A DNA stretch of 64,000 bases from Chiloscyllium plagiosum (GCF_004010195.1 NC_057717.1:107166585-107230584), one strand, 5' to 3'; shown: positions 2,140 through 58,515, numbered from the stretch's first letter. The notes: generated by a model not told the origin, from the sequence alone. Numbers and translations: made by a program.

Positions 2140-2645
2140 AATATAATGCATTGTCTGAGTTGAAATGTCACCTTTTGTTATAAAACCTTAAGTTATCTCA
2201 AGAATGTGACTTAAAAGAAGTTCTGGGATTTACATATTAATGAACTCGAAACCTGCAACCCATTCTAAAAGATGAAAGAGGAGAAAGTGAGGTCTGCAGA
2301 TGCTGGACATCAGAGCTGAAAATGTGTTGGTGGAAAAGCGCAGCAGGTCAGGCAGCATCCAGGGAACAGGAGAATCGACGTTTTGGGCATAAGCCCTTCT
2401 TCAGGATGAAAAGATGAAAGACTTGACAGCAATCCAGGTTTGTTCAATGTATCATTCCAGTTGGATGATACTAATCTTTTGCTATAAATTCTGTGTCTTA
2501 TGATCTTATGCTCCACAACCACCTGATGAAGGAGCAGTGCTCCGAAAGCAAGTGCTTCCAAATAAACCTGTTGGACTATAATCTGGTGTTGTGTGATTTT
2601 TGACTTTGTACACTCCAGTCCAACACCAGCTTCTCCACATCATGT
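2140..2645 (+). mobile_element. PLE-derived terminal-repeat element with degenerate hammerhead motif (family 2)
   Basis: cac-CTGATGA-a-GGAGC agt GCTCC-GAAA-gcaa-gtg at 2520-2554. Interrupted by a family-1 element at 2280-2408. Confidence 0.6.
2280..2408 (-). mobile_element. ~130-bp hammerhead-bearing PLE-derived element (family 1), core mutated
   Basis: Matches the other family-1 copies. 13-bp TSD aaaagatgaaaga at 2267-2279 and 2409-2421. GAAA is mutated to AAAA. Confidence 0.8.
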
Positions 2646-2736
2646 TGAAAAGAATCAGCCAATATGTACAGTTTTGCACCGATCTGGACAGTCAGTTAGT
2701 GAGTGCTGTGAGCTTCAATTCCACTGTTGGACTTCA

Positions 2737-2878
2737 CCAGGTGAAACATGGCCATTAAGGCTACAAAAGATCAGGCAATTGCATTCATGAACAAGAAGGG
2801 CTACCACACGCTGAATGTACAATTGGCCTGTGATCACCACAAGTGGATCATTCAGATCTGTGCAAGCTTTCTAGGAAT
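2737..2878 (+). mobile_element. PIF/Harbinger transposase remnant
   Basis: 2787-2878 translates MNKKGYHTLNVQLACDHHKWIIQICASFLG, matching the NRKGxHSxNVQxxCD motif of Harbinger DDE transposases. Confidence 0.7.
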
Positions 2879-2880
2879 GT

Positions 2881-3260
2881 TTGAGTTATAAGGTAGCCAG
2901 GAAGGATCTGAAGAGAGAGCTAAGAGCAGCAAGGAGGGGACATGAAAAGTCCTTAATTGGTAGGATTAGTGAAAACCCTAAGGCTTTCTATAGGTATGTC
3001 AGGAATAAAAGAATGACGAGGGTAGGAATAGGTCCAGTCAAGGATAGTAGTGGGAAGTTGCGTGTGGAGGCTGAAGAGATTGGGGAGACATTGAATGAAT
3101 ACTTTTTGTCAGTATTCACTCAGGAACAGGACATTGTTGCCGATGTGAATATTGAGTCACAATTAATTAGAATGGACAGCTTTGAGGTATGTAGGGAAGA
3201 GATGTTGGAAATTCTGGAAAAGGTGAAAATAGATAAGTCCCCTGGGCCTGATGGCATTTA
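2881..3260 (+). mobile_element. CR1 LINE ORF2 fragment (pre-RT linker)
   Basis: ORF with ENPKAFYRYV, LNEYFLSVFT and KSPGPDGI, typical of CR1 ORF2. Ends abruptly at an antisense CR1 3'-tail fragment (3261-3400). Confidence 0.85.
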
Positions 3261-3554
3261 AGACCATAAGACATAGGAGCGGAAGTAAAGCCATTCGGCC
3301 CATCGAGTCCACTCCGCCATTCAATCATGGCTGATGGGCATTTCAACTCCACTTATCTGCATTCTCCCCGTAGCCCTTAATTCCTTGTGACATCAAGAAT
3401 TAAGTCTTGTAACCTTGTCAAAGGTTTCCCACTAACAAAACCAAGCTTGGACTCTGCCTGATTGTATTGTAATCTTCTAAATGCCTTGTGACCACCTTCT
3501 TTCCCATCCCTCATTCTCAAGCTTCACCCTGGAATGCTCACTGTAGCTACTCTT

Positions 3555-4478
3555 ACTATTTTTATAAATGACCTGGAAGAGGGGTTAGAAGGTTGGGTGA
3601 GCAAGTTTGCGGATGATATGAAAGTCGGTGGAGTTGTTGACAGTGAGGAAGGATGTGGCAGGTTATAGCGGGATATAGATAAGCTGCAGAGGTGGGCAGA
3701 AAGGTGGCAAATGGAGTTCAATGTAGGTAAGTGTGAGGTGATTCACTTTGGTAAGAGTAACAAAAAGATGGGGTACTGGGCTAATGGTCGGATACTTGGT
3801 AGTGTGGATGAGCAGAGGGATCTTGGTGTCCATGTACACAGATCTCTGAAAGTTGCCACCCAGGTAAATAGTGCGGTGAAGAAGATTTATGGCGTACTGG
3901 CTTTTATTGGTAGAGGAATTGTGTTCCGGAGCCCTGAGGTCATGTTGCAGTTGTATAAGACTCTGGTGCAGCTGCATCTGGAGTATTGCGTGCAGTTTTG
4001 GTCGCCATACTATAGGAAGGATGTGGAGGCACTGGAACGGGTGCAGAGGACATTTACCAGGATGTTGCCTGGTATGGTAGGAAGATCGTATGAGGAAAGG
4101 CTGAGGCACTTGGGGCTGTTTTCATTGGAGAAAAGAAGGTTTAGGGGTGACTTGATAGAGGTGTACAAGATGATTAGGGGTTTAGATAGGGTTGACCATG
4201 TATGGAGTCAGCTATTACGAGGGGGCATAGCTTTAAATTAAGGGGTGGTAAGTATAGGACAGATGTTAGGGGTAGATTCTTTACTCAGTGAGTCGTGAGT
4301 TCATGGAATGCCCTGCCAGTAGCAGTAATGGACTCTCCCTCTTTATGGGCATTTAAACGGGCATTGGATAGGCATATGGAGGATAGTGGGCTAGTGTAGG
4401 TTAGGTGGGCTTGGATCGGCGCAACATCGAGGGCCAAAGGGCCTGTACTGCGCTGTATTTTTCTATGTTCTATGTTTC
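3555..4478 (+). mobile_element. CR1 LINE RT C-terminal half and 3' UTR
   Basis: [32 protein letters not shown] and LERVQR motifs; ends in a (ttctatg)n tail. Confidence 0.9.
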
Positions 4479-4818
4479 AAGACACCTACATTTTAAGACA
4501 GTTCCTGGAAGGCATTGTCTGGAACAATGCCCGTAAGGTGTATTCCCGTGAGTATGACTATGTCAGGCTTTTGCTTTACTAGTTGGTGAGGCAGTTTTCC
4601 CAATTTTGCCACTAGCCCCCAGATGTTAGTGGGAAGATATTTGCAGGGTTTAAGGCATCCAGCAAAAAAGTCAAAAGAGGGAACATTTATTACTGTGATC
4701 TGGATTAAGATGCATAAAGAATAATGGAAACAGCTTCACTAGTAATCTTCAAAAATCCAATTCTTGCAAAGGAAAAGTTTGCAGGTATACAGAGAAATAG
4801 CAGAAACAGTGAAACCAC

Positions 4819-4989
4819 CTTGCATGGTTCTTTCAAAACCTGTGTAGGCACAGGTTTCTCTTTCTGCACGTAACTACTCTGAGGTTCAGTGAAAAGGGTG
4901 ACCATCTCTGGCTCTCTGTCCATCTCTGAAGAGTTGCGTGATTTTATTCTTAAAACGATCTCCTTCTCTATAGCAGCATTTTGATAAAT
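4819..4989 (-). CDS. Candidate internal exon (57 aa, phase 0-0), gene unidentified
   Basis: Pyrimidine tract/ctaat then AG|ATTTATCAA…TGCAAG|GTGGTT. 171 nt open: IYQNAAIEKEIVLRIKSRNSSEMDREPEMVTLFTEPQSSYVQKEKPVPTQVLKEPCK. No homologue recognised. Confidence 0.25.
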
Positions 4990-5752
4990 CTTGTTTTAAT
5001 TAGTCAAAGAAGGAAAGAGTGAGAACTTCGTTAGACAGAAAATCAGTGCAGTGTTACCTCCCACTGCTGCATTTTATAGGGAATGAGATATATCACACTG
5101 TGTGGAATTCACACTCTGTGGAGAGGCTCAATTAGACACAGCCATTGTTGCTTCTAGTTCTTCAATATACCTTTGCTTTCCTTTTCTCTCATGTGATGAG
5201 AGAATAAACAGTGAGATAATGGAGTATTGCACACTACCACCTGGCACTGAAACAAATCCATCTTGATCTGTACACCTCATTAGCTTTTATATTGATAATA
5301 ACCACTACCTTCCTTGTTCAATAGTCAGATAAATTACAGTTCAATCTCTGCATAGTCTGTCAATGTACACAACATCTTCATCTGCTGTCACTAGACAGGG
5401 TCGAAATATTTCATAACTTGTATTTACAGGAGTTTTTCCATCTTTTACTGTTTTTTTTTGGTCTGATTTCCTGTTGACATTGTTTCAATTTTGCCAGATG
5501 ATCTGGTTTCCTGGGTCTCACAAATACATCTGCAATTAAGCTACAGTCATGATCTGCACATTTAGCCATAATAATTATGACGCCTCATTTATGTTGTGCA
5601 CGTCATGTCTCCAAATACCTAACACAATGAATTGTTGTTGAAGTGTGCTGATCATTATGTACAGCCTGGCAGTGATGCAAATCCAGCATTGCTGATCCAT
5701 GTAGGCAGAGAACTCAATGCATCAATTGACAAAGTACAATGAGAAGAGGTAC

Positions 5753-5910
5753 CAACACTGAACATTAACCTATTAACAACACTAAATATTAACTCTTTAC
5801 CAACATTAAATATTAACTCTTCCCTAACATTGCACATTAATTCTTTGCCAACACCAAACATTCAGCCTTCCACAACACTGAGCATTAATCCTTCAGCAAT
5901 ATTGAACACG
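5753..5910. repeat. Degenerate 24-bp minisatellite (~6 units), same family as 10278-10700
   Basis: Recurrent cattaa(c/t)…caacactga with 24-bp period. Confidence 0.7.
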
Positions 5911-6329
5911 ATCATGACCATGAATCATAATCTCAGCCCAGATCACCTATGGCTAGACCAAACTTTAATTCCAATGATCCTTTTAAAAGAGGGTTGATAC
6001 AGCCAAAGTGACTGCAGGTGTAAACTGAGTGGCTATCTAGAGACTCTGGAGTGTCACACCTTAAGATGTGTCAAAGAGGCTTCAAAGAGAGAAATGCACT
6101 AGAAACTGAACTTGTCATTCTGTTTCTAACTCCGACGGTGAACATGATGGTAAAGAAGACAGCAGTCTGGGCAAAGAACACACTTGTAATGTTCCACTTT
6201 CAAGAATACTAGTGTGTTTGGAAGGCCACAGCTTTGGGAACATCAATACACATCCATATAACTCATGCCAAGACAGAGAAAAGGTAGAGGTAGTGGGACA
6301 GTGGCAATATCGGTGTAAAAGGAACTAAA

Positions 6330-6900
6330 ATCCCAGGATAATGTCCTAGAGGCGTGTGTTCAGATCATACCATGATACGTAGTGAAATCTAAATTTAGTG
6401 CTCATGTGTACAGGAATGGGTGGTTTGAATGGATGAACGTGTGGCTGAAGAGTTGGTGCAGGTGGAAGGGCTTTAGATTCCTGGATCACAAGTCCATTTC
6501 TGGACCTGTGCTAATCCATTGGGTTACATCTCAACCAGAATCCGAAGGGATGGCAGGGGTGTTGGTGCTGTTGGTGTGGGTTTAAACTAATTTGGCAGTA
6601 GGATTGAATATGGAGTGGAGGCATTTTATGGGATGATGTACAGACAGGTGTAGAAGAAAAGCAAAATCTGTCCAGAAGGCAGAGCATATATAGCCAAGAC
6701 AAAAGGAGTACGGTATTTATTTTAATGTAAGGGATCTTGTGAGAAAGGCAGATGAGTTGAGGGTGTTGAGGGTGTATACAAATGGGCATACGATATCATC
6801 GCTATCATGTAGACATGGTTGAGAGAGAAATGGCGGCAAGGTTGGTGAAAAGATGGTGTGGCAATATTGATCAAGCTGTCAATTACTGCAGTAAGGCAGA
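6330..6900 (+). mobile_element. Decayed CR1 ORF1 (esterase-like) / ORF2 endonuclease junction
   Basis: WMNVWLKSWCRWKGFRFLDH (CR1 ORF1 C-terminal motif), followed by an IYFNVR…KADEL-like APE start. Confidence 0.65.
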
Positions 6901-7450
6901 TCTGACAGACTGACCATGGTCCATCCCCTTGAGCAATCTAACCGGACAGTCCCAGGACCAGAAATATCCAGACCCCTGACTGTTGGATGTACACTTGGCC
7001 AACTATGTTAAACCTATTACCCCTGGAATAGCTGCTATGGAGCCACAGGAATGATCATTACCCACTCCCTGGACTGCACAGGCACAGACCCCCTGATTGA
7101 AACAATTCCGACTGGATAACAGACTGTGGATAATCCCCTGGACTGGTAACGTAGACATCCCTTAACTTAATGTGTTGAGACCCCCTGACTGACTGGTGCC
7201 TGCATGGAATTTGATGGGGACTACTCCATTAAGACTTTAAGACATGGCTGCCTGTTTGCTGCACATGCACATGGAGTGGCTGTGAAAATTATGTAATTCA
7301 CTGCTGTACTGCAAGATGTCCACCCCCTTCACTGAGGATCGCAGACCACCAAGGCATGTTGCCTGACTGTGTAAATGCCCGAATTTGCAAAACAAGGCAG
7401 TGCAAGGCATGGATGCTGAAAGCAAGCAGATAGATATGATGTGAGAGAAC

Positions 7451-8010
7451 TTTTTTTAATTTCAAAAATATATTTGATTCATAAAAATATCTCTAGAAAC
7501 ATACATAGTTGCTACAGCAGTTCATTTCTGTGCAGTCTGTGCATATTGGGAACAAACAAACATTGGATTTTGACTCTCCTGACAGTTCCAACAATCCAAA
7601 AATATTTTTGACTTATGCAACATATTATTTATATATATTTGAGGCAATAGCTGAATTGACCCCATTGTACTTTGGCAGAAATACCTCAGACAGTGGTCTT
7701 TCCCCACTGCACCTTGGCAGCAGCTACCCAAGCGTTAGTGCATCCCACACATGTAGTCCTGGACCTTGGAATGTGCCAGTCTGCAACACTCGATCAGGGT
7801 CAACTCCTTGTTCTGGACAACCAACAAGTTTTGGGCAAATTAAAGAGCATCTTTCACTGAGTTGATGGTCCTCCAGATGCAGTCAATGTTTGTCCTATTC
7901 CAGGGAACAGCCTGTAGAGCACAGGGACCTGCATCATGGAGCTGCTCAGGATGAACCTTGACGAGAACCACTGCATTTCTCCCCAGACCCCCTTTACAAA
8001 GGTACATTCC
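7451..8010 (-). mobile_element. Tx1/L1-clade LINE 3' end
   Basis: Minus-strand NIDCIWRTINSVKDAL C-terminal motif; poly-A tail seen as tttttttt at 7450-7457. Confidence 0.6.
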
Positions 8011-8356
8011 AGAAGGAGATGTGTGATAGTCTGCAGTCACTCACAGAGGCCGTAGCTTGTTTGGCTGGGATCTGAATTGGCGGTAGACCGAAACCAGCAT
8101 AAAGATCCACAAACAGGAGCTCAGCTCAACTGACAATCCTCCAGGGTCACAATCTAACAATGATCTCAAGATCTTCTAACGATGATGAAGGTTCTCAGCT
8201 CAGACTCATTCTGGGAGAATTTTCATAATGAAATGAGTGAAATCCTTAATGAGTACTTTACATCAGTATTCACCTAAGAGAGAGACATGAGGTTAGGGAA
8301 TTGGGCAGATCAACATAATGAAGAAGGGAGTGTTGAGTGTCTTGAAATGCACTAAT

Positions 8357-8983
8357 GGAGGAGGCCAGGCCACTCAAAACATTGTTAAGCAGGCAGCCCA
8401 GACCATAACTTTGCAATTTGTTTCAGTAAGTGTACAGTGAAAATTACCCGGAGTAAGTTAGCTAGGTTGACTACTAAGTTTTAAAACAGACAAAAATTTA
8501 TTCACAGAATTACACAATGAAACACAAAACACAGAATAAAGAACCCCAACAGAACTCAGTCTATCCAAACTAGACTTAAGCATGGGATTCTGAATATACA
8601 CAACAATCCCATTAAGCAAACTCCCTTTAAAAGCCAGTATAAATGGAACACATGCTTACAGGCTGAAGTTGAAGGGCAGAAAGAGAGAGAAAGTTTCCAC
8701 ATAGTTCACTGTTGAAAGCCTCACCAGTTCAAGACTGAACCAAACTGCTCAACTAGAGAGCTGACCACTCCCCTTTCATTATACCGGTCACTTCTAAAAC
8801 ATGACCACTTTGGCCTGAAGTCTCATCTGTTTACATATAAACAATACACCTCTCAAACCCTTTTCATCTCTGTACAAAATCAGACTGATCAGAGCCCGGC
8901 CTGTTTTATTACCCCTCTGAAATAAAATCAAGGGCAGAGTATCCTTGAGCTTTTATGAAAGAAATGGGACTAGCTTTGTGACA
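8357..8983 (-). mobile_element. Putative solo LTR inserted into a CR1 fragment
   Basis: ~625-bp block that reads TGTCACA…CA on the minus strand and contains AATAAA. It splits a CR1 fragment (8230-8356 resumes at 8984 with KFPGPD). TSD not clear. Confidence 0.4.
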
Positions 8984-10277: not shown

Positions 10278-10700
10278 ACACATCATTAACCCTTCACCAG
10301 CACTGACCATTAATTCTTCACCAGCACTGATCATTAACTCTTCACCAGCACTGACCATTAACCCTTCATGAGTACTGGCCATTAACCCTTCACCAGCACT
10401 GATCATTAACTCTTCACCAGCACTGATCATTAACCCTTCACCAGCACTGATCATTAACCCTTCACCAGCACTGACCATTAACCCTTCATGAGTACTGGCC
10501 ATTAACTCTTCACCAGCACTGATCATTAACTCTTCACCAGCACTGACCATTAACTCTTCACCAGCACTGGCCATTAACTCTTCACCAGCACTGATCATTG
10601 AAACTTCACTAGCATTGACCATTAACTTCACCAACACTGAGCATTAACCCTTCAACTGACAACGAACATTTCACTAGCACTGCATATTCACCCATTACTA
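10278..10700. repeat. 24-bp minisatellite (cattaacccttcaccagcactgac, ~17 units)
   Basis: Direct tandem units; explains the minus-strand (SAGEELMI)n ORF. Confidence 0.95.
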
Positions 10701-14236: not shown

Positions 14237-14362
14237 AGGAGAAAGTGAGGACTGCAGATGCTGGAGATCAGAGCTGAAAATGTGTTGCTGGAAAAGCGCA
14301 GCAGGTCAGGCAGCATCCAATGAGCAGGAGAATCGACGTTTCGGGCATGAGCTCTTCTTCAG
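14237..14362 (-). mobile_element. Hammerhead-bearing PLE-derived element (family 1)
   Basis: Family-1 sequence; core ctgaaga-agagctcatgccc-gaaacgtc with a stem II mismatch; imperfect TSD tttttt(a)atgtta. Confidence 0.8.
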
Positions 14363-14776: not shown

Positions 14777-14918
14777 GGATAAAGTGAGGACTGCAGATGC
14801 TGGAGATCAGAGTTGAGAGTGTGGTGCGGGAAAAAGCACAGCAGGTCAGGCAGCATCCGAGAAGCAGGAGAATCAATGTTTCGGGCATAAGCTCTTCATC
14901 AGGAATGAGGCCTCATTC
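14777..14918 (-). mobile_element. Hammerhead-bearing PLE-derived element (family 1), core decayed
   Basis: 17-bp TSD gctatcatgag(a/g)aactg at 14760-14776 and 14919-14935; terminal palindrome gaatgaggcctcattc. Confidence 0.8.
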
Positions 14919-29224: not shown

Positions 29225-30165
29225 AGAAGTCTTGCCTCCTAGTTGGGAGGCTGTGCGTTCAATTCTGACTCAAACCCACATTGCATTGTGGAAGGGTCAC
29301 TACTAAGGAAATACTGCACTGCTGTCCCTCAGTGCAATACAGCTGAGGAAGTACTGCATTGCACTGAGGGACACCACTAGGAAATGCTGCGCTGCAAGAG
29401 GGCCAGCACTGAGGAAATGCTGCACTGCAGGAGGGACTGCAATGAGAAAGTGCTGCATTTTCAAGAGGACAGCAGTGAGGCAGTTTTTAAGTAGCTGTAC
29501 TAAGGAGGGCTGCATTGTCAGGGGGAGCACTATTGAAACAGGGTTGCGCTGTTAGATATGCCATCTTTGATTAAGATTTTAGATTAGATTAGATTACAGT
29601 GTGGAAACAGGCCCTTCGGCCCAACAAGTCCACACCGACCAGCCGAAGCGAAACCCACCCATACCCCTACATTTACCCCTTACCTAACACTACAGGCAAT
29701 TTAGTATGGCCAATTCACCTGAACCTGCACATCTTTGGATGGTGGGAGGAAACTGGAGCACCCGGAGGAAACCCACGCATACACGGGGAGAACGTGCAAA
29801 CTCCACACAGTCAGTCGCCTGAGGCGGGAATTGAACCCAGGTCTCTGGCGCTGTGAGGCAGCAGTGCTAACCACTGTGCCACCGTGCCGCCCACAGATGT
29901 TAAACTCAGTCTGAAATGAAGCCCAGTGTAGTCTCTTGAGTGAAAAGAATCCTCCTGCAGTATTCTGAGCAATATTCATACTTCAATGATATCACTAAAA
30001 CAGACTTCCTGGCCATTACCATAATTCTGCTTGTGGGAGCTTTCTATGAACAAATTTACTGTTGTAGTTGCTACATTATAATAGTAGGTGAACTTCAAAA
30101 GTATTTCACTGGTTGTAAAATGCCTTGAGACATTATGAAGTTGTGAAAGGTGCTATACAAGTTTA
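29225..30165 (+). mobile_element. DeuSINE-like (SacSINE1-type) old SINE, split by an HE1 insertion
   Basis: 3' half …ttgtgggagctt…cttcaaaagtatttcactggttgtaaaatgccttgagaca…gtgaaaggtgctata; 5' part with repeated actgaggaaatgctgcactg motif. A second fragment lies at ~49690-49835. Confidence 0.55.
29580..29892 (-). mobile_element. HE1-like tRNA-derived SINE
   Basis: Reverse complement of 26806-27112 with (agatt)n tail at the left. Confidence 0.9.
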
Positions 30166-34699: not shown

Positions 34700-36177
34700 A
34701 CTTTGGATTGTCTGATGATTTGTCCTCGGCTGCTTTGGGAAAGGAGAAATGCAATTGCTTCGCCACTTGTGAAGGTCTTTGCATCCTCGCTCTCCACTGG
34801 AGTCGTACCTGAGGACCAGAGAGAGGCAAATGTAATTCCTCTCTTCAAGAAAGGAAATAGGGAAATCCCCGGCAATTCCAGACCAGTAAGTCTCACGTCT
34901 GTCGTCTGCAAGGTGTTAGAAAGGATTCTGAGGAATAGGATTTATGACCATCTAGAAGAGCATGGCTTGATTAAATGCAGTCAACACGGCTTTGTGAGGG
35001 GCAGGTCATGCCTCACAAATCTTATTGAGTTCTTTGAGGATGTGACTAGAAAATTTGATGAGGGTCGAGCTGTGGATGTGCTGTATATGGACTTCAGCAA
35101 GGCATTTGATAAGGTTCCCCATGGTAGGCTCATTCCTGAAGAAGGGCTAATGCCCGAAACGTCGATTCTCCTGTTCCCTAGATGCTGCCTGACCTGCTGC
35201 GCTTTTCCAGCAACACATTTCCATCTCTGATCTCCAGCATCTGCAGACCTCACTTTCTCCTCATTCAGAAGGTCAGGAGGAATGGGATACAGGGGAACTT
35301 AGCTGTCTGGATACAGAATTGGCTGGCCAACAGAAGACAGCGAGTGGCAGTAGAAGGAAAATATTCTGCCTGGAAGTCTGTGGTGAGTGGTGTTCCACAG
35401 GGCTCTGTCCTTGGGCCTCGATTGTTTGTAATTTTTATTAATGACTTGGATGAGGGGGGGCTCATGCCCGAAACATTGATTCTCCTGCTCCTTGGATGCT
35501 GCCTGACCTGCTGCGCTTTTCCAGCAACACATTTTCAATCCAAGTGGACAGCGTTGTTAAGAAAGGATATTGTGTTTTGGCTTTCATTAACAGGGGGATT
35601 GAGTTTAAGAGTCGTGAGATCTTGTTGCAGCTCTATAAAACTTTGGTTAGACCGCTCTTGGGATACTGTGTCCAGTTCTGGTCGCCCTATTATAGGAAAG
35701 ATGTGGATGCTTTGGAGAGGGTTCAGAGGAGGTTTACCAGGATGCTGCCTGGACTGGAGGGCTTATCTTATGAAGAGAAGTTGACTGAGCTTGGACTTTT
35801 TTCATTGGAGAAAAGGAGGAGGAGAGGGGACCTAATTGAGGTGTACAAGACAATAAGAGGCATAGATAGAGTCGATAGCCAGAGACTATTTCCCAGGGCA
35901 GAAGTGACTAACACGAGGGGTCATAGGTTTAAGCTGGTTGGAGGAAAGTATAGAGGGGATGTCAGAGGCGGGATCTTTACACAGAGAGTTGTGAGAGCAT
36001 GGAATGCGTTGCCAGCAGCAATTGTGGAAGCAAGGTCATTGGGGACATTTAAGAGACTACTGGACATGCATATGGTCACAGAAATTTGAGGGTGCATCCA
36101 TGAGGATCAGTGGTCGGCACAACATTGTGGGCTGAAGGGCCTGTTCTGTGCTGTACTGTTCTATGTTCTATGTTCTA
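34700..36177 (+). mobile_element. Relatively young 5'-truncated CR1 LINE with two family-1 insertions
   Basis: RT motifs [56 protein letters not shown] and [10 protein letters not shown]; (gttctat)n tail. Confidence 0.92.
35136..35260 (+). mobile_element. Hammerhead-bearing PLE-derived element (family 1), intact core
   Basis: CTGAAGA-a-GGGC taat GCCC-GAAACGTC at 35136-35163. TSD ctcattc at 35129-35135 and 35260-35266; removing the insert restores CR1 GRLIQKVR. Confidence 0.88.
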
Positions 36178-38180: not shown

Positions 38181-40937
38181 GAGGACATCTGGCGTTTTGG
38201 ACAATTACATATTGCATACACTTAACAATATAGTTCCACCCTCTTCTCAAATATCATAATGATATGGCAAGGCAATAGACGTGAAGCTGGAAAAGCATAG
38301 CAGGTCAGACAACATCCAAGGGGCAGGAAAGTCAACGTTTTGGGCTGAAAGGCTTTGTCAGGACTGGCAAGGCAAATGGAAATATTGCAGGGCAGTGTAG
38401 CAGATACCTTACTATAAATCAAACTTGTGCTATATCTGGTCTGTGAATGCTTGATGCTTGATCACAGATAAAGTTTTCATAAATCTAAGATTTATCATCT
38501 TGAAAAATCACCAAAACATTAGTAAAAGGAGGTATGGTAAACTATTACTTTCTAGCCCAAAGAATTTCATTAGATCCTTCCTTGGCATTATCAGGTGGCT
38601 CATTATGAATTGGCTAAAGGAAATACAAATACTACTCTCTTCAATATGTAATCCTGAATTAGTCAGAAATTTGCAGTGCTCAGCAAATCTGAAAACCATC
38701 CATTTTCTAACTAATTCCATTAATGATAGCAACATATGCCAGAATATTTGAATTTTCCTTTACCATGCAATTTAGACTCATTCGTTAATCAACATGCAAG
38801 GTTGAGGTTCAAAATACTGAAAAGTAAATCAATATAATTTAGAGAATAGAATGGTCTTCTGCAGCTACCTCACACACCTCACTGTTACCAGTATTCTGCC
38901 AACACCAAATACACTAAGTCTGAAAACAGGTGTATGCGAGTGAATGCAGAACTCTGGTGATGCCTGACTCCTGATCAGTCTCTCAACATTATTAGAATAA
39001 CAAGTTACAGGAGCAACTTGCCCTCTTTGTCTGTGACTCACTGTGTGCAAACAGCACTGTACATTCCCCAAAATCATTGAAGTGCATTCAATGACAGACT
39101 TGCATTCATATTACCCAAATTTCATTTCTCAGAAATAAAAGTTTGAGACGTACTTAATCCTTTGAAGCTCAATTATTACTTACCTAGGTCAAACCGCTAC
39201 ATCCCTAAATAGTCTGGTGAAGGATCACTGAATGGAAACATGGGGATGAATCTTATTTTTTTGGCTCAGTGCAAGTTGTGTCAAGTTTTATGAAAGGCTG
39301 TTTGCCGTGAGGCCTCGTGAGGTTCCTCACTGTATCTCACAAACTCACCTTATTAACGGCATACCCACGCTTATGGCATCCCTCAGTTGACTCCAGCCCA
39401 ATTTACCACATGCCATTCCCAGAACAATTCTCCACTCAGCTGATATCCAGAATTCATTGAAATACCTAACACACGGCTCTGGCTCTCATGGTCTCACCAT
39501 TTGCTTGCAACATCTCCCCTTACTCGCTGTCACACACCCCCAACCCGACAGCACTAATCCTGCATTCTCCTCTGAATTTTTTATTCACTCTAGATACCTC
39601 CCCAGTGGAGATTGCCCTTGACTTACTCTACCAGGACCCCCTGACAAAAAGTCTGTTTCTTTCGATTTAACTGAGGCATGCTGACATGCTTCCTTCCTTT
39701 GTGTCTGAGTTAAATGGAAGGCAAGACAGAGTATATTGAGACAAGTATCTCTGGCTGAAGGGGCAAAGCTCAATAAGGCAAGGCAAGGCCATGCAAAGCA
39801 GGGTTGCTATGAGTATTCAGGTAAGCTGACAGCAATGAGCACTATGAAACAAATGAAGAGCCCGGAGATGCAGCTTGATGAGCTGGATATGCCTGTCTGA
39901 GTGCACAGTATTCTGGCTGCAGCATTACAATGATGGCTGCTGTTGTGTGCCTGTTGTGCAGCTTTGAAATGCAGAAGCATACTGTTAAATGAATTGGAGC
40001 TACACCCTAAGGGTTCTTAGAGGCTGGCACATATCTGATGCCAAAGTCCTTAGACTGTGTGTGTGTGATTAGGCCCTATAGAGCGTGGCCTGAGATATTG
40101 GTGCCCAGTATCCAACATGAAGGTCCTTCAGAGGAAGCAGTAAGTTGATGTTTCTCAGGTTTCTCAACATCTAGCTTGTTTAATGACTTTGGTAATATAG
40201 AAAGCTGAATATTAATTAAATGAGTTGGGCCATCAACAAGGTGTTTAACAAGCAATAAACTCCCATAATTGGGAACTCGCTGCTGCCTAACGCGAAACTC
40301 CAGAGTGCGATGATTATGAGGTCGAGATGGACCTCACTGAACTTCTTGTCCAGTGTTGCCATGAGTCTCACCATAACCCACATCGCTCAGATCCTTAGAC
40401 AATTCCACCCATTAGCTCTGTTCTTCCACAGAGACCACCAGACCTGATGAACATTTTCTGTCTTTCTAATGTTTCAATTTCTCTTGCTAGCCAAGGTTGA
40501 ATACTTTTCCATGGCATTTTCATTCCTTAAGGGTACACTTGTGATGAATCATGAATTAATTATTTATATTTTTGTTATTTCTTATCTACTGTCTACTTAT
40601 CAACGACTTGCTCCTCAAACCTGCAGTTTTCTTTGTTCACAATGAGGAAATTAAATCAATATTTATCTAAATCACTCTCAAATGAACATACTGACATAGA
40701 GAATGACCTTGATTGCAATTCATGAATTCATCCTACATATCACTGGTACAGTTTTGGTAGAAGAGGGAGTGAATATTAATGGGAGGAATGTCAATCAATC
40801 AAATAACACTTTTGTTGGTACCGAGCTTCACACACCCTAGTGTTATGATCTCAGCTGATGGCACTAAACTATTTCAAATTCTAATAATTTGAAGGTTTCT
40901 ATCTTAAAACTCTCAGGATTTTGAATCTTCACAAATA

Positions 40938-43878: not shown

Positions 43879-44208
43879 GTGGTTCTGTTCGCCAAGCTGG
43901 GAATTTGTGTTGCAGACGTTTCGTCCCCTGTCTAGGTGACATCCTCAGTGCTTGGGAGCCTCCTGTGAAGCGCTTCTGTGATGTTTCCTCCGACATTTAT
44001 AGTGGTTTGTCTCTGCCGCTTCCGGTTATCAGTTCCAGCTGTTCCACTATAAATGCCAGAGGAAACATCACAGAAATGCTTCACAGGAGGCTCCCAAGCC
44101 CTGAGGATGTCACCTAGACAGGGGACGAAACATCTGCAACACAAATTCCCAGCTCGGCGATCAGAACCACAACAACGAGCACCCGAGCTACAAATCTTCT
44201 CACAAACT
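43879..44208. mobile_element. Foldback PLE-derived element with two hammerhead motifs (family 3)
   Basis: ~129-bp inverted arms (43877-44005 and 44044-44172); 17-bp TSD tagagtagcttttcatt at 43862-43878 and 44209-44225. Confidence 0.88.
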
Positions 44209-45405: not shown

Positions 45406-46048
45406 TCATCATTCCTGTGCTGTTGCTCCCAACATCTGTAGTGTACTGGTTTTAACGAGGTGATCTTTCACAGAGACATAAGCATATTTGGAGATTTGGT
45501 TTCAACAATATAACAGATGCTTATGATGCAAAAGAAAGAATGATAAAATAAACCAAACTATTTAGATATAACACAAATTTGAAGATTTTGATGTACATAA
45601 TAAACTACAATCCCATTAGTCCCAACAGGACCCCTTTGTAGTCCTCAGACCAGAGAGAATTCCCTTGTCTATCTCTATCTATAAGGTTTAACTTAATGAA
45701 TGCTTCATTTCCCAGTCTTGATAATTTGACAGGTGCTTTCTTGAGTCTTTATCCAACTGTGCTTAGACTTTCTCAGCTTCAAATAGCCCCTTCAGGATTT
45801 TAACAAAACACCGTTAGTCTGCAACTTTCAAACTGAACTTCTTACATTGATGTAATCTATTTATTAACAGTTCTAAACTATCTCTGTTCTTCAGGAACAG
45901 CCGTTTTACACATTAACTTTCACTAAAACTTCCGTAAACACAAACCAAAAGGTTTCTTCAAGCTGTGCATGTTTCCTATAAGCCAAAAAAGGTACAATTC
46001 CAGATCCTTCTGATGCATAATGCATAACCATGCCTATCATGTAAAGCT

Positions 46049-47347
46049 GGTAAAAACAATGACTGCAGATGCTGGAAACCAGATTCTGGATCAGTGGTGC
46101 TGGAAGAGCACAGCAATTCAGGCAGCATCCAACGAGCAGCAAAATTGACGTTTCGGGCAAAAGCCCTTCATCAGGAATAAAGGCAGAGAGCCTGAAGCGT
46201 GGAGAGATAAGCTAGAGGAGGGTGGGGNNNNNNNNNNNNNNNNNNNNNNNNNNNNNNNNNNNNNNNNNNNNNNNNNNNNNNNNNNNNNNNNNNNNNNNNN
46301 NNNNNNNNNNNNNNNNNNNNNNNNNNNNNNNNNNNNNNNNNNNNNNNNNNNNNNNNNNNNNNNNNNNNNNNNNNNNNNNNNNNNNNNNNNNNNNNNNNNN
46401 NNNNNNNNNNNNNNNNNNNNNNNNNNNNNNNNNNNNNNNNNNNNNNNNNNNNNNNNNNNNNNNNNNNNNNNNNNNNNNNNNNNNNNNNNNNNNNNNNNNN
46501 NNNNNNNNNNNNNNNNNNNNNNNNNNNNNNNNNNNNNNNNNNNNNNNNNNNNNNNNNNNNNNNNNNNNNNNNNNNNNNNNNNNNNNNNNNNNNNNNNNNN
46601 NNNNNNNNNNNNNNNNNNNNNNNNNNNNNNNNNNNNNNNNNNNNNNNNNNNNNNNNNNNNNNNNNNNNNNNNNNNNNNNNNNNNNNNNNNNNNNNNNNNN
46701 NNNNNNNNNNNNNNNNNNNNNNNNNNNNNNNNNNNNNNNNNNNNNNNNNNNNNNNNNNNNNNNNNNNNNNNNNNNNNNNNNNNNNNNNNNNNNNNNNNNN
46801 NNNNNNNNNNNNNNNNNNNNNNNNNNNNNNNNNNNNNNNNNNNNNNNNNNNNNNNNNNNNNNNNNNNNNNNNNNNNNNNNNNNNNNNNNNNNNNNNNNNN
46901 NNNNNNNNNNNNNNNNNNNNNNNNNNNNNNNNNNNNNNNNNNNNNNNNNNNNNNNNNNNNNNNNNNNNNNNNNNNNNNNNNNNNNNNNNNNNNNNNNNNN
47001 NNNNNNNNNNNNNNNNNNNNNNNNNNNNNNNNNNNNNNNNNNNNNNNNNNNNNNNNNNNNNNNNNNNNNNNNNNNNNNNNNNNNNNNNNNNNNNNNNNNN
47101 NNNNNNNNNNNNNNNNNNNNNNNNNNNNNNNNNNNNTCTCAGGGAGTTATCATCTTCATCTCCTCCCCCACTCACCTATTGTACTCTATGCTACTTTCTC
47201 CCCACCCCACCCTCCTCTAGCTTATCTCTCCACGCTTCAGGCTCTCTGCCTTTATTCCTGATGAAGGGCTTTTGCCCGAAACGTCGATTTTGCTGCTCGT
47301 CGGATGCTGCCTGAATTGCTGTGTTCTTCCAGCACCACTGATCCAGA
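46049..47347. mobile_element. Longer foldback PLE-derived insertion with hammerheads in both arms, centre in an assembly gap
   Basis: Sequence left of the gap is the reverse complement of sequence right of it. Intact cores at 46147-46174 (-) and 47258-47285 (+). 13-bp TSD atcatgtaaagct at 46036-46048 and 47348-47360. Confidence 0.85.
46228..47136. other. Assembly gap (909 N)
   Basis: Run of n. Confidence 1.
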
Positions 47348-47469
47348 ATCATGTAAAGCTACCCAGTGAAAACAAACACCATTACTCTCAATAAGTCTCT
47401 CATAATGTTTTAGAAGATATTGCCTTGGCTACAGGAATACACATGCCTCTAGTTCAAAATCAGCTCTAA

Positions 47470-47529: not shown

Positions 47530-47735
47530 GTCACACCTTATATTGCACAAACAGCATAATGGAGGCTACCTGGAGGAGTGAGGTACAGAAGGTAGAAACA
47601 GACTGTCATCCAGAACATTTTCAATGACACCAACATTACAAATTCTGTTACACAGACCCCATGATGTAAAGACCTATCGTATCCTTAATGTTAAGACTTA
47701 TAGGCACACTAGACTCCTGTGAGTTCTGCTCTGCT

Positions 47736-47938
47736 CTGTGGGAGGAAACCGGGTGCTCCGGTTTCCTCCCACAGTCCAAAGATGTGCAGGGTCAGGTGAA
47801 TTGGCCATGCTAAATTGCCCGTAGTGTTAGGTAAGGGGTAAATGTAGGGGTATGGGTGGGTTTCGCTTCGGCTGGTCGGTGTGGACTTGTTGGGCCGAAG
47901 GGCCTGTTTCCACACTGTAATGTAATCTAATCTAATCT
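47736..47938 (+). mobile_element. 5'-truncated HE1-like SINE with short terminal inversion
   Basis: 3' half of HE1 with (aatct)n tail; 17-bp perfect inverted repeat at the truncation point. Confidence 0.85.
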
Positions 47939-47943
47939 ATTAT

Positions 47944-48117
47944 AGTTGAGAGTGTGTTGCTGGAAAAGCACAGCAAGTCAGGCAGCATCCGAGGAGCAGA
48001 AGGCTCTGGCCTGAAATGTCGATTTTCCAGCTCCTCGGATGCTGCCTGACCTACTGTGCTTTTCAAGCAAAAAAATCTCAACTCTGACCTCCAGCATCTG
48101 CAGACCTCACTTTCTCC
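47944..48117. mobile_element. Degenerate foldback family-1 element
   Basis: Arms agttgagagtg…gcatccgaggagc and gctcctcggatgc…tctcaact, ending cactttctcc; hammerhead core largely lost. Confidence 0.75.
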
Positions 48118-52637: not shown

Positions 52638-52770
52638 AGGAGAAAGTAAGGACTGCAGATGCTGGAGACCAGAGTTGAAAAGTGTGGGGTTGGAAATGCG
52701 CAGCAGGCCAATCAGCATCCAAGGAGCAGGAAAATCGACGTTTCGGGCATAAGCCCTTCTTCAGGAATCT
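52638..52770 (-). mobile_element. Hammerhead-bearing PLE-derived element (family 1), intact core
   Basis: Core at 52737-52764; 14-bp TSD ctattatttc(c/t)gtt at 52624-52637 and 52771-52784. Confidence 0.85.
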
Positions 52771-54106
52771 CTATTATTTCTGTTTTCTACCTCCTTCCCT
52801 TCTTAAATAGGGATTTACATTAGCTATGTTCTAGTCCTCTGGTACTATCCCTGACTCCAGTGATTCCTGAAAGACAATCACCAATGCCTCCACAATCTCC
52901 TCAGCTATCTCCTTCAGAACCCTGAGGTATAGTCCATCCAGTCCAAGTGATTTACCCAGCTTTCTTAGCACCTTCTCCTTAGTGATGGCCAGTACACTGA
53001 CCTCTGCCCCTGACTTTCTTGAAGTTCTGGTATGCTACTGGAGTCTTCCATCATGAAGACTGATGCAAAGTACCGATTCAGTTATTTCACCATTTCTTTG
53101 TTTTCTATTTTAACTTCTCCAGTCTCATTTTCCCACGGGTTCAAAGTCTACTCTTGCCTCTCTTACCTTTTACATACCTAAAAATACACCTGCAATCCTC
53201 TTTTATAATACTAGCTAGCTTGTTCTCATATTTCATCTTCTCACCTCCCTCCTCTTCCTTTGCTTTTTTAGTTGTCCTCTGTGAGTTCTTAAAGGGTTCT
53301 GTCTTCCCATTGATCTTCATCACATGTATGATTTTTCTTTTGCTTTTATGCTGTCCCTGACTTCTTTTGTCAGCCCTGGTTGCCTTATCCTCCCCTTCAT
53401 ATGTTTTTCTTCCTTGGGATTTCTTACAAATTACCCCCAGAAACACCTGTCATTACTGCTAAACCATCATCTTCCCTGCTGGGCTCCTCTTCCCATCAAC
53501 TTTATCACCTCCACCCTCATATCCTTTTAGTTATCTTTACTCAGTTGTAATACTGTTACATGTGTTTCTAGCTTCTCCCTCTTAAATTGCAGGGTGAATT
53601 CTATCATCCAATGGCCACTGCCCCCAGGAATTCCTTCACCTTAAGTTCCCTTGTCATCTCAGCCTCATTACACAAGAAGAGATAGGGAATAGATGGATAT
53701 GGACCATATGCAGGCAGGTGAAATCAGTTTAAAATGGAATCATTGTTGGCACAGACATGATGGGCCAAAGGGCCTGTTCCATGTTCTATTTCACATCACC
53801 AAATCCAGAATTGCTGTGCCCTTGTAGGCTCTACCACAAGCTGCTCCAAAAAACATTTCATAGACATTCTAGAAATTCCTTTTCTTGGGATTTGCTACCA
53901 ACTTGATTTACCGAGTCCATCTATAGATTGAAGTCCCCCATGATTATTGTATAAGTGCCTTTTGTACATTCTGTTTCTTTCTCCTGACTATTGCTCGAAG
54001 ACGTGTACGTAATTCCCATCAGGGTCTTTTTTTCCCTTTGTGATTCCTCATCTCTATCCACACAGATTCTATGCTTTCCAATCCTATATTGCTTCTTATT
54101 ATCAAG

Positions 54107-54425
54107 TGGGCGGCATGGTGGCACAGTGGTTAGCAATGTTGCCTCACAATGCCAGAGACCTGGGTTCAATTCCTGCCTCAGGCAACTGTCTGTGCGGAGT
54201 TTGCACATTCTCCCTGTGTCTGCGTGGGTTTCCTCCGGGTGCTCCGGTTTCCTCCCACAGTCCAAAAATGTGCAGGTTACGTGAATTGGCCATGCTAAAT
54301 TGCCCATAGCACTAGGTGAAGGGGTAAATTTGGGGAATGGGTCTGGGTGGGTTGCTCTTCAGAGGGTCGGTGTGGACTTGTTGGGCCGAAGGGCCTGTTT
54401 CCACACTGTAAGTAATCTAATCTAA
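54107..54425 (+). mobile_element. HE1-like tRNA-derived SINE
   Basis: Full-length copy with A/B boxes and (aatct)n tail. Confidence 0.9.
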
Positions 54426-54939
54426 TTTCATTTCATTTCTTACTAACCAGGAGCCCTGACTCCTCTGCCCATGTGCTTGTCCTTTCAATAGATGCAACCC
54501 CTTTGCAGCCACATCTCTGTGATGCCCACATTGTACCCGCCAATTTCAATCTGTGCTACAAGCACATTCACCTTGTTTCTCGTACTGTGAGCATTTATGT
54601 ACAACACCTCTAGTCTTACACTGACTTCTCCCCTTCTCACAGTTGTCCCCTTATCTGCTGTGCATGAAGTTAGACTTCTCACCTTTTCCATATTCTCTGT
54701 TCTATTACATGTTCTCCAACTTTAATAATGTCTGCTGAGCCCTCCCTTTAATGGAGGACAGGATGAGCTCATAGTTGTGGAGGATGAGGTGGATAGGAGC
54801 TATTGAGTGGAGAGGTTGCATGCAGTAGCAAGTATGAGCTTTAGTGGGAGCTGTGTGTGCAATGTCACAGTTGAAGTTACTGTTAGGTAGCAGAGAAAGG
54901 ATGGCGCCATTTACCCTTGCTGAGTGCAAAAGATGGAGT

Positions 54940-55408
54940 CATAGAGTCATGCAGCATAGAAACATGGTTGAACTCATCTGTGTAAATCAGACATCCCAAT
55001 CTGACCTAGTCCCATTTGTCAGCATTTGGCCCACATTCCTCTAATCCCTTCTAGTCATTTACCCATTCAACTGCCTTTTAAATATTGTAATTTACCAGCC
55101 TCCACCACTTTCACTGCCAGCTCATTCCATACATGCACCACCCTCTGCATTAAAAAGTTATCCCGCAAGTCTTTTTAAAATCTTTCTCCTCTGACCTATG
55201 CCCTCTAGCTGTGGGCTGCCTCACCCTCAGGAAAAGACCTTGGCTATTTACCCTACCAATGCCCCTCATGATTTTATAAACCTCAAGAAGGTCACCCCTC
55301 AGTCTCTGACACTCTGGGGAAAACGCCCAGGCTATTCACTCTCTTCTTATAACTCATACCCTCCAATCCAGCAACATCCTTGTAAATCTTTTCTGAACCC
55401 TCTCAAGC
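54940..55408 (-). mobile_element. CR1 3' fragment
   Basis: Reverse complement of the 18190-18650 type CR1 end, with (atagagtc)n tail. Confidence 0.75.
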
Positions 55409-57824
55409 TTAACAGACTGAGCTTCTTGCGTCACTGTTGTGCAATCCTCTTGGTCAAACAAATGGTTCTGACCCAAACTGCTATTTCAGTTGAGACTGGC
55501 TTGGTCTGGTGTCAAGCCTTCAGTGTCATTCCACCAGAAAGAGGATGGTCCTCCTCTCTATCACCTTGTCTACCAGCAGGTCTCTCTCTGCAAAGCTAAT
55601 TTCCCTTTCTGAGACATTGCCAGCAGCAGCAGACTGTGAAAGACCGATACCTGGCTTGCATAGTCTGAAATGGTTTGTCAATGGAGTTTAAATATAGTGC
55701 CCATAGCATGAACAGTATACCCTGGTGAGCAATTCCGAGATTGCGAGATTGCACGGGCAGGGTAGTATGAATCCCAAATGTACAATTAGTGAGGTGAGCA
55801 GTAGAAGCTTGCATGAGAAAAGCCACCAAGGACCATGGCAGTAAACCTTCCATGAAACTCCCTGAACATAACACAACCAAAATATGGGAAAATTCTGCCC
55901 TATGTTTTCTTTGGAATTCTAAATTGACCGGATAAAGTTTGAGATGATGATGGAAGTCGATCCAGGTAAATGTGTGTGTGGTGCATGGTTCAAATTCGAG
56001 CTGAGAAGGAACAGAAATAAGGGGATTAGGAACTGAACAAGAAGCTGTAGGAAACCTTTGCAGAGCTGGGTACTGATGGAGATAACACAGGTGAATTTAC
56101 TGTGGGCTTCCAGCACTTGTTGGCAGTGGGACCGGCTCAGTGATTTTACTAGAAGCAGTCTCCTAATTGGACACTTCTGGGCTCATGGTCTAATTTGGGT
56201 TGGTGGACAGTCTCGTGATGCCTTAGGCTCAATCAGAAGCCTGGATGATATGAAGGTAACTGGAAGATCTTGATGGTATCTCAAACTCGAGGTGACACTT
56301 GAGGGTTCTATCGATATAGTCTAACCTGGTTGGCCAAGGGTAAATGTTTCCCAATGATTGAAGGGAATTACTCCTTCAGGGAGACTGTTAGGGGGTTTCG
56401 TGCCTGTGGGCCTGCTGGCCTTTCCCTGAGGTCATGGAGCCTCTGGCTCTCTTACTCAGACTGTTGTAGGGAGAGCACCTACTTGAAGCAGGTCACCTCC
56501 CTGTATCCCACCAATTGGGATCTTTGTTACAGAAGCTGGCTGATTACATCTGTACAGTGGGCAGCCAATGCAAACCTTGCCCACCTCCTCCCTGCTGTTG
56601 AGGCAGCATCGCAATGATGTCCTTCTATTTTACCAGCAGACCTCCAGCCTCTACTACCCCCATCCAGAGCTGGGAACATTCAGTCCATACGGGCAAGTCT
56701 GCTTTGAGCAGTTTTTAGCTAAACTCAGTTTATGATTCCCACGACACAATTTGGAGCCTAAATTCCCAAATTCAGTCAGAGGGAATAACCTAAAACTAGT
56801 AATTCTTGAAAATGAATGTACTGGTCACACTGGGCCTCTATCTTGAAATACTCGAGTCCGACCAATATGACTCATTCACCAGATTTACTGGTTTTCCTTC
56901 TGGACAATCTTATCACTCTCTTTTGAACTGTCTCTAATGTACCAATGTTCTTTTGTAAGTCTCATGCTCAAACCTGCGCTGAATACTCCAACATGGTCCA
57001 TGCAGAGGTCTGCAGAGGAGTAGATTGTCATCAGGATATGTCTCAGGTTTTTAATCTTTGTGTTTAACAGCAAATTCACAATGACAGGATACTTTCACCA
57101 GCATGTCAGCAATCACACCCACACCCCTTGTTCACTCTGGATAAAGGAAGACACAAAGCTCATACACTCGACATTTTTAAGGGAATGAGCTGAACTCTGA
57201 AAATATGTCTAATTTTTTGTCAAAAAAAAAGAAATGGGTAGAAGCTTAGGGGAGAGGGTTGTACACAGACGATTTTCACTGGTGAGAAAGAACACAGGTG
57301 GGAAAGATTTACAGAATTGTGTTTGAAGGAGTGACTGATTCAAGCAGAATGTGTTTTTTGTGACAGCTCTTCTTTACAATGTCCCTGTTCTGCCTTTGAT
57401 GGCTGAACCTCATCTTTACCAATACACATGCGTGAATATATGCATTACTCTAATTAAAGTATGATGGGACCATTTTAAGTGAACCTATTCAGCAGAAACT
57501 AGGCAGGTATGTGTGGATATTGTACCAACCTATTCAGGTGTGAATTGAAACACCTCAGGTAGAACTTTAACACAAGTATTCTGGGTCAGAGCTGGGGATG
57601 TTACCACTGCACCACAGCAGCCCTAATAAGTGTGTGTAGGCAGTTCAAAAAAGATAAGCCAATTCCCAGTTCCTAGCTTTGAGATCTTAACACCAGTGGA
57701 TGAGGCCCCTATTTAAATCAGGTGGATATCACATTCAAGCAAACAAATCAGAGCCATGTTATACCAATAGGATTTCTAAGTCCTTTTAAGAATAGTCTGA
57801 AAAGGGTGGTCCTCACCTCTAATG

Positions 57825-58040
57825 ATGGAAATGTGTTGCTGGAAAAGCGCAGCAGGTCAGGCAGCATCTAGGGAACAGGAGAATCGACGTTTCGGGCATT
57901 AGCCCTTCTTCAGGAAGTCGATCCTGAAGAAGGGCTAATGCCCGAAACGTCGATTCTCCTGTTCCCTAGATGCTGCCTGACCTTTTCCAGCAACACATTT
58001 CCATCTCTGATCTCCAGCATCTGCAGACCTCACTTTCTCC
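57825..58040. mobile_element. Foldback family-1 element with two back-to-back intact hammerhead cores
   Basis: Cores at 57886-57913 (-) and 57924-57951 (+); 15-bp TSD tcctcacctctaatg at 57810-57824 and 58038-58052. Confidence 0.9.
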
Positions 58041-58515
58041 TCACCTCTAATGCTCCAACTAACTATTAGCAGTTCTTAAGACTGAACAGGTCAGACAGTA
58101 AGTGTCAAAATTTTCATTATGGCCAGGTGTGTCAAGTCACAAAGGGAGTCTCTTTGTGTTACCTGGGGCCATACTCCTTCACTCCATACACCTCCAAAAC
58201 TCCTTTCAGCCACCAGGTTCACTCTTTGCTTCATGCTGATAGCTAACTGCTTCTTTCTTTCCCTGTTCAGTGATCAGCTAACTAAAGGCTGTACGTCACA
58301 TCCCACAGTTCAACTGGCCTTTACCTCAAAGTGACGATTCACAATTGGTTCATCTACTCCCAGTTAATATACCTCCCAAATCCTACCATCACCTATTCCT
58401 AAACTCTTGTTCTTTTACCAGATCTTTCAAAATACTGTTTAGTATTTGGCCACTGAGTTACAAGGTGTACATTGTTCCAAGTAGCCATGAAGACTAAGAG
58501 ATCCAGGGCAGCTAC

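Follow-up and report, generated by a model that had tools for sequence, protein, structure and literature searches.

What are the short repeats, each built around the core of a hammerhead ribozyme, that recur in a 64,000-nucleotide (nt) stretch of the genome of Chiloscyllium plagiosum (GCF_004010195.1 NC_057717.1:107166585-107230584; the whole stretch is hereafter called the window)? The original prediction, made from the sequence of the window, described them as a highly amplified family of non-coding, non-autonomous and retrozyme-like derivatives of Penelope-like elements. We found that each copy very probably represents the terminal module of a Penelope-like retrotransposon (PLE), in which a leader of 4-8 nt (..CATTC) would be followed by a minimal type I hammerhead, a conserved stretch of ~60 nt and an optional tail of ~34 nt; the hammerhead part would be composed of CUGANGA, an unpaired A, a 4-bp helix II (GGGC/GCCC), GAAA and a palindromic ACGU in place of a full helix III, with the cut expected after GUC. 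PLE hammerheads were reported in 2014, and the copies described here are a very abundant but expected example of them.

The core is 28 nt long (CTGAWGA-N-GGGC-N4-GCCC-GAAACGTC) and was searched for as the pattern CTGAWGANGGGCNNNNGCCCGAAACGTC. At ≤3 mismatches, nine matches were obtained in the window, compared with 0.00 expected from 100 dinucleotide-preserving shuffles; six had 0 mismatches, namely the six cores that had been predicted to be intact, and the other three had 1-3 mismatches (Table 1). A blastn search with the 124-nt unit at 35136-35259 as the query gave 13 high-scoring segment pairs (HSPs) in the window, which recovered all ten of the insertion starts listed in the original prediction (2280, 14237, 14777, 35136, 35455, 38276, 46049, 47944, 52638 and 57825) plus 47258. 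A region of ~100 nt downstream of the core is common to the copies, and many of them share the terminus ...cactttctcc. In the whole assembly of the window's own genome (3.56 Gb, 101,977 contigs), the exact core occurred 86,892 times (43,414 + 43,478) and its reversed control 0 times. The high amplification that had been claimed is thus confirmed, and with ~87,000 intact cores this one superfamily ranks among the most abundant ribozyme-like motifs of the assembly. We also took an unselected sample of 264 kb, consisting of the window and positions 1-200,000 of contig C1 (49,318 of these 200,000 bases read N), with 213,773 readable bases in all. It contained 55 HSPs, or about one unit per 4 kb; by rough extrapolation from these 264 kb, decayed copies may number several hundred thousand genome-wide.

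Read as RNA, the core has the order C3-U-G-A-N7-G-A9, an unpaired A, helix II (GGGC/GCCC) closed by a 4-nt loop, G12-A-A, A15.1-C-G-U16.1 and C17. The boxes CTGA[A/T]GA...GAAA...GTC are exact in 6 copies in the window and 86,892 in the genome. One unpaired A precedes GGGC-N4-GCCC, and the helix II hairpin is present in the minimum free energy (MFE) fold of the unit computed with ViennaRNA. Helix III is replaced by the palindrome ACGU (GAA-ACGU-C), a self-complementarity that is compatible with a dimer, and in a two-strand fold the GAAACGUCGAUUC stretches of both strands paired with each other. The core boxes, helix II and the ACGU palindrome all agree with the type I layout of PLE hammerheads that had been proposed, and the motif fits a Penelope-type minimal type I hammerhead with predicted cleavage after GUC. 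Minimal hammerheads were described in the terminal repeats of metazoan PLEs by Cervera and de la Pena (2014, PMC4209133). According to the portion of that paper available to us, they have a G10.1-C11.1 pair, and palindromic positions 15.2-16.2 let two copies form helix III. The motifs described in that portion share with ours the core boxes, the unpaired nucleotide before helix II, G10.1-C11.1, ACGU for helix III and a short helix I, and they likewise occur mostly solo or as nearby opposite-strand pairs, with several consensus families per genome. However, helix II has 4 bp here, whereas the motifs given there for flatworms and flies have 6-8 bp, and the 86,892 exact cores stand against ~4,000 reported for coelacanth and ~9,000 for Xenopus, numbers that were obtained by different counting methods.

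The module is found in at least three lineages. Lineage A has CTGAAGA and the loops TTAT, TCAT, TAAT or CCTG; lineage B has CTGATGA, the loop TTTT and its own tail; and lineage C has the loop TTTT and another tail. When single copies of A, B and C were aligned, 22 of 28 columns were invariant in the core (+1..+28) and 39 of 57 in the adjoining +29..+85, compared with 15 of 34 at -34..-1 and 41 of 86 at -120..-35. The core and the next ~55 nt are therefore more conserved than the 3' untranslated region (3' UTR) of the element. Within the core, variation is confined to N7, the loop and private changes, of which several fall at CpG. The original prediction had looked to excess conservation or covariation of the core and stem II as a sign of function: the excess conservation was found, in the core and the ~55 nt that follow, whereas covariation of stem II was not.

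Longer copies connect the module to the coding sequence of a PLE. They run upstream of the module into an open reading frame (ORF) with a reverse transcriptase (RT) and a GIY-YIG endonuclease, and 265 nt upstream of the core are common to three copies in C1. The fragment L032:1767-2862 matched Pfam RVT_1 with 33 bits, above the cut-off of 29.6. The fragment L034:912-1607, which reads ...CNCKKCKTCTH...IIYCIHCTRCGLLYIGETGRLLVERFREHL...EEEHLIFCLGTLQPQGMN, matched Pfam GIY-YIG (E 9.7e-4), and the residues IIY...YIG, R, H, E and N of that endonuclease are visible in it (...IIYCIHCTRCGLLYIGETGR..REH..EEE..GMN). Because both fragments contain the peptide DPTT[RK]DIFPSP, in which they overlap, they belong to one ORF with RT first, so that the PLE arrangement of a single ORF with RT followed by a C-terminal GIY-YIG is found across two overlapping fragments; the endonuclease coding sequence ends ~270 nt upstream of the core. 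As far as the accessible text of Craig et al. (2021, PMC8557442) describes them, endonuclease-positive PLEs have the same features: RT with a C-terminal GIY-YIG and a Cys-rich linker, strong truncation at the 5' end, and, next to the element, an inverted copy that is itself 5'-truncated, together with a tail of 30-40 bp at one end only. A conserved ATG at +47 was considered as a candidate ORF start and set aside as unproven, since its frame stays open as far as the end of the tail in A and B but meets a stop in C.

We further counted exact 30-mers at -10..+20 and at +1..+30 for three loop types. The counts were 10,762 and 30,936 for TTAT (35% extended upstream), 2,101 and 6,288 for TAAT (33%), and 37 and 12,252 for CCTG (0.3%). 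About one third of the young TTAT and TAAT copies therefore reach the PLE 3' UTR and ORF, which identifies the module as the terminus of autonomous PLEs. All the loop types present in the window (TTAT, TAAT, TCAT and TTTT) have ORF-linked relatives. The CCTG subfamily carries diagnostic changes along the whole unit and has no copy in the window.

The boundaries of the copies also bear the signature of PLE insertion. In the window, the copies are flanked by target duplications of variable length, from 7 to ~17 nt, as expected of the retrotransposed insertions that had been claimed. There are two alternative 3' ends ~34 nt apart, a short one at about +85..+95 (...CACATTTTCAGC) and a long one at about +124..+126 (...cactttctcc). 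Head-to-head inverted pairs within one duplication are common. The window contains three of them (46049-47349, 47953-48116 and 57825-58039), and the head-to-head junction pattern was found at 9,973 loci genome-wide. The insertions that had been placed at 47944 and 57825 are accordingly real, but each is an inverted pair and not a single insertion; similarly, the copies at 46049 and 47258 are two arms of one insertion and not separate insertions. One arm had a long tail and the other a short tail in 17 of 17 assessable pairs, the difference being ~34 nt. These pairs were 15 from a 17-row listing plus two read by eye, window 47993/48034 and L034 996/1767; the pair C1 2913/2923 was left out, as N cuts its short arm, and two rows of L046 that share an arm were counted as one pair. 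The extra ~34 nt on one arm only corresponds to the published PLE tail of 30-40 bp at one end.

This arrangement can be accounted for by what has been published on PLE biochemistry. In vitro, the anole PLE enzyme cuts and extends both strands and initiates reverse transcription internally, at two sites close to each other (Frangieh et al., 2024, PMC11167929). If the enzyme behaves likewise here, it would cut both DNA strands of the target, and reverse transcription would begin inside the RNA, past the hammerhead, at either of two closely spaced sites, giving the short and the long 3' ends. One complementary DNA (cDNA) joined to the target would then produce a solo copy, and two cDNAs joined head to head would produce a pair. 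The 3' ends lie ~60 and ~95 nt past the predicted cleavage site, and the anole start sites lie ~90 nt downstream. Neither the one-long/one-short rule nor the accumulation of 5' ends described below appears in the available portions of the PLE descriptions in PMC8557442 and PMC11167929. The copies thus form a genomic record of PLE insertion, visible in the two 3' ends, the single tail of each inverted pair and the sharp 5' end, and such a record could test the biochemical model of the anole element in another vertebrate lineage.

Several results weigh against the assignment of the copies to a PLE with a hammerhead. At the coding level, the GIY-YIG match, at 19.8 bits, fell short of the 22.6-bit cut-off, and neither the RT nor the endonuclease fragment had a match in PDB or more than noise in NCBIfam. 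Neither a full-length element nor a pair of pseudo-LTRs (partial tandem) around an ORF was readable, and the bodies of B-lineage elements read N (window 46228-47136, C1 85468-88743 and C1 120948-124333). None of the 38 long-tail arms sampled continued into shared sequence. Concerning the hammerhead, helix I of the types in the window (AUUC against GAUU) has 2 bp, a U-U mismatch and 1 bp, compared with the ~4-5 bp given for minimal type I hammerheads of PLEs, and is as weak as had been pointed out. The search with covariance models that had been suggested gave no Rfam hammerhead match in the window, either at the gathering score or at E ≤10; we take such a result to be expected, as helices I and III are not closed in the motif, but the hammerhead assignment is then backed by no curated model. 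No covariation was detected, since helix II is the same in all three lineages and does not vary in the superfamily; only the loop and N7 do. In run X11, a raw single-cell poly-A run of which ~2% was read and which is poorly suited to the cleavage question, 2,604 reads from both strands mapped to L034:700-2000, and 93% of them ran on into unrelated sequence; no pile-up of molecule ends was found over this region in that single-cell poly-A library. The depth excess of the module over the ORF in X11 was of the same order as in the DNA run X7, and the X11 reads are read as passive co-transcription of the copies; run X12 contributed 0 reads and is uninformative.

Other searches were also negative. 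The fold of the whole unit was not significant (z = -1.1 compared with mononucleotide shuffles). Pfam gave no match for the first, frameshifted ORF fragments (L024), and a genome-wide Pfam search for GIY-YIG returned one unrelated match among the 150 of 14,403 candidates that were scored and was thus uninformative. An N run directly follows the module at two loci, C1:2923 and L035. The two C1 N runs that lie directly upstream of B-lineage modules are similar in length (3,276 and 3,386).

How, then, do the short copies acquire their 5' ends? Among 31 A-type arms of the unselected 264-kb sample, 15 start at -8..+1, 11 at +2..+50 and 5 further upstream. The density of 5' ends, 15 in 9 nt at -8..+1, is thus ~7 times that at +2..+50 (11 in 49 nt). 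Moreover, the spacers of head-to-head pairs are mostly built from the -1..-9 nucleotides (GAATC, GAAT[CG]ATTC; count over the 50 loci listed). The 5' end of the short copies is therefore a genuine and discrete one. A TTATCT box, which precedes the A of YYATTCC (at -4) by ~26-31 nt, is kept in all three lineages; we take the box and YYATTCC to resemble a TATA-like box and an initiator, respectively. We therefore entertain, as a tentative and rather doubtful proposal drawn from these sequence features, that the short units may be complete leader retrocopies, produced by transcription that starts just before the hammerhead and by internal initiation of reverse transcription. The PLE promoter (the TTATCT box and YYATTCC) would place the start of transcription 4-8 nt ahead of the hammerhead, and the PLE enzyme would start reverse transcription internally, ~90-125 nt into the leader RNA, so that each transcript would give a copy of ~95-130 nt beginning with the whole hammerhead. 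If this is true, dead PLE fragments that keep ~40 nt of the 3' UTR would act as sources; the excess of solo minimal hammerheads over PLE ORFs in animal genomes would also be accounted for, and the CCTG subfamily (12,252 exact, 37 with upstream sequence) could be understood as a parasite of ~130 nt that exploits the PLE machinery. However, in 9 of 11 B-type arms the element sequence reaches 23 nt or more upstream of the core (several of these arms are cut by N), that is, copies of lineage B mostly extend far upstream despite having the same upstream motifs, and the 5' ends could instead reflect a block to the enzyme. Arms that start at the cleavage site (+29) were considered as well and rejected, as the starts at about +31..+33 are junctions at a shared TTCT/GAA microhomology and not cleavage ends.

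The same 5' ends also count for another explanation of the short units, that they form a separate non-autonomous family of ~130 nt, consisting of the hammerhead and the RT recognition region, with master copies of its own and PLE enzymes acting in trans. In addition to the 15 of 31 A-type arms at -8..+1, it would account for the CCTG subfamily, with its diagnostic changes along the unit, its perfect 4-bp helix I (AUUC/GAAU, found in CCTG copies elsewhere in the genome, whose MFE fold has helices I and II together) and its rare extension 10 nt upstream (37 of 12,252, compared with 35% of TTAT and 33% of TAAT). A TTTT run stops polymerase III, and the unit holds such a run; no A or B box was seen by eye, and a polymerase III short interspersed element was ruled out on these two grounds. 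A copy of 130 nt would also be without the conserved upstream TTATCT box, and the short CCTG units could derive from the 37 extended copies of that subfamily. Given further that CCTG is absent from the window and that the types present there have ORF-linked relatives, we regard a separate family as a somewhat unlikely origin of the short units as a whole. Nevertheless, the discrete 5' end and the near absence of extended CCTG copies leave room for a trans-mobilised short element, and a trans-mobilised non-autonomous family is likely for the CCTG subfamily. The non-coding and non-autonomous character originally ascribed to the repeats is thus only partly borne out: these two features speak for it, and the TTAT and TAAT copies, about one third of which run into the PLE 3' UTR and ORF, speak against it. 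The opposite possibility, that the copies are random 5' truncations of PLE insertions, with no defined 5' end of the RNA and with the hammerhead as a passenger without present function, is unlikely. Heavy 5' truncation is known for PLEs (stated in the available part of PMC8557442), of the 31 A-type arms 11 begin within the module and 5 further upstream, and hammerhead mutants left PLE insertion in vitro unaffected (PMC11167929); but against random truncation stand the ~7-fold higher density of 5' ends at -8..+1, head-to-head spacers derived mostly from the same -1..-9 nucleotides in the 50 loci listed, and a core that is the best-conserved block across the lineages.

A retrozyme origin, in which tandem copies are transcribed, self-cleaved, circularised and reverse-transcribed from small circular RNAs, is very improbable here. 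Retrozymes are head-to-tail tandems, and such arrays do exist, as 137 unit-length junctions (72 + 65 genome-wide, none of them in the window by blastn) and 201 micro-tandem junctions with units of 27-40 nt. They are rare, however: the unit-length arrays are ~70 times rarer than the 9,973 head-to-head loci and ~600 times rarer than the exact cores. The copies do not begin or end at the predicted cleavage site (+28/+29), and the single-cell poly-A run X11 had no pile-up of read ends there. For these reasons, the description of the repeats as retrozyme-like is unsupported. Animal non-LTR (long terminal repeat) retrozymes, as presented in the accessible part of a preprint by Li, Clavereau and Pollet (2026, 10.64898/2026.07.22.740005), resemble our units in being short, non-coding, hammerhead-bearing, related to PLE termini and probably mobilised by PLEs, and differ from them in occurring as head-to-tail tandems with circular RNA, whereas inverted pairs dominate here. 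The largest count of active retrozymes in that part of the preprint is 14,255, in axolotl. It was also the only work found in a literature search for Penelope hammerheads in Chondrichthyes or for transcription starts at PLE hammerheads; the accessible part covers one cartilaginous fish, sampled for tandem retrozymes, and its supplements may list similar families.

Taking each copy as a PLE terminal module, we collected the copies of the window in Table 1.

Table 1. Copies of the hammerhead-bearing module in the window (positions counted from its first nucleotide)
Feature	Position	Strand	Core, duplication and other details
Full short unit, loop TTAT, long tail	2281..2404	-	Core 2377-2404, one change (GCCCAAAACGTC); duplication tctttcatctttt
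Full short unit, loop TCAT, long tail	14239..14362	-	Core 14335-14362, stem II broken (GAGC); duplication taacat.aaaaaa; three extra G at 5' junction
Full unit, long tail	14778..14918	-	Core 14875-14902, decayed (3 mismatches); duplication cagttYctcatgatagc; 16-nt 5' stub gaatgagg/cctcattc, an inverted 8-mer
Intact unit, loop TAAT, long tail	35136..35259	+	Exact core 35136-35163; ctcattc on both sides
5'-truncated copy, short tail	35450..35537	+	Begins at about position 9-11
Old, decayed, truncated copy	38286..38361	-	80% identity
B-lineage arm, loop TTTT, own long tail (...ctgcagtcattgtttttacc)	46049..46227	-	Exact core 46147-46174; 53 nt of element sequence upstream of core, reaching N run
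N run between the two B-lineage arms	46228..47136	.	909 N
Second B-lineage arm, short tail ending ...gatccagaat	47137..47349	+	Exact core 47258-47285; 121 nt of element sequence upstream of core; duplication catgtaaagct (46038-46048, 47350-47360) bounds the whole pair 46049-47349
Head-to-head pair, 5'-truncated arms, decayed cores	47953..48116	.	Minus arm 47953-48002, short tail; plus arm 48009-48116, long tail
Full unit, loop TTAT, ATTC leader, long tail	52640..52768	-	Exact core 52737-52764; duplication gaaataatag
Head-to-head pair, loop TAAT, intact cores	57825..58039	.	Minus arm 57825-57913, short tail, exact core 57886-57913 (-); plus arm 57924-58039, long tail, 8-nt internal deletion, exact core 57924-57951 (+); 13-nt duplication ctcacctctaatg (57812-57824, 58040-58052), the clearest in the window

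The copies also matter for annotation, as short units break up other repeats and ORFs. At 34950-35700, an RT ORF of the long interspersed nuclear element (LINE) type (...MDFSKAFDKVPHGRLI...) is broken by the units at 35136 and 35450, the former sitting in ...FDKVPHGRLI|QKV.... Head-to-head pairs resemble microRNA (miRNA) hairpins and could pass for miRNA precursors: the sub-threshold Rfam matches to mir-423 and MIR528 (E 0.5-4) at 47976-48052 are the hairpin of the pair at 47953-48116. Other sub-threshold miRNA-like matches in the window lie at 29313-29381 and 47716-47791. The best sub-threshold match, with 26.4 bits (gathering score 57) and E 0.11, was a MIR399-like hairpin at 43966-44083 (-) that probably reflects a further inverted repeat. 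A different short repeat (...ggtttcctcccacagtccaaagatgtgcag...ggccgaagggcctgtttccacactgtaatgtaatctaatcta) adjoins the short-tail end of a PLE arm at three places, in varying orientation (window 47716-47952, L034 1861-1995 and C1 from 168378 onward).

Two further kinds of hammerhead-like sequence were observed. The micro-tandem arrays mentioned above, in which the 27-40-nt unit holds little beyond the hammerhead (e.g. ...GTCGAATC|CATTCCTGAAGAAGGGCCTGTGCCCGAAAC...), occur for instance at C7:77962992-77963147, C15:63676068-63676216, C2:20694027-20694190 and C22:4984550-4984667. Many of their junctions lie at ATTC, which is present at both -4..-1 and +30..+33, and this suggests template switching. 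In addition, an unrelated second motif of the hammerhead type, absent from the original prediction, lies at 2523-2548 (+) of the window within a different repeat (2495-2645). It reads CTGATGA-A-GGAGC-AGT-GCTCC-GAAAGC... and has a 5-bp helix II and an apparent 3-bp helix III. The GGAGC/GCTCC stem of its family is a case of diversity between families and not of covariation within the PLE module. The core pattern of this second motif had 20,141 exact matches in the genome, and its reversed control had 0.

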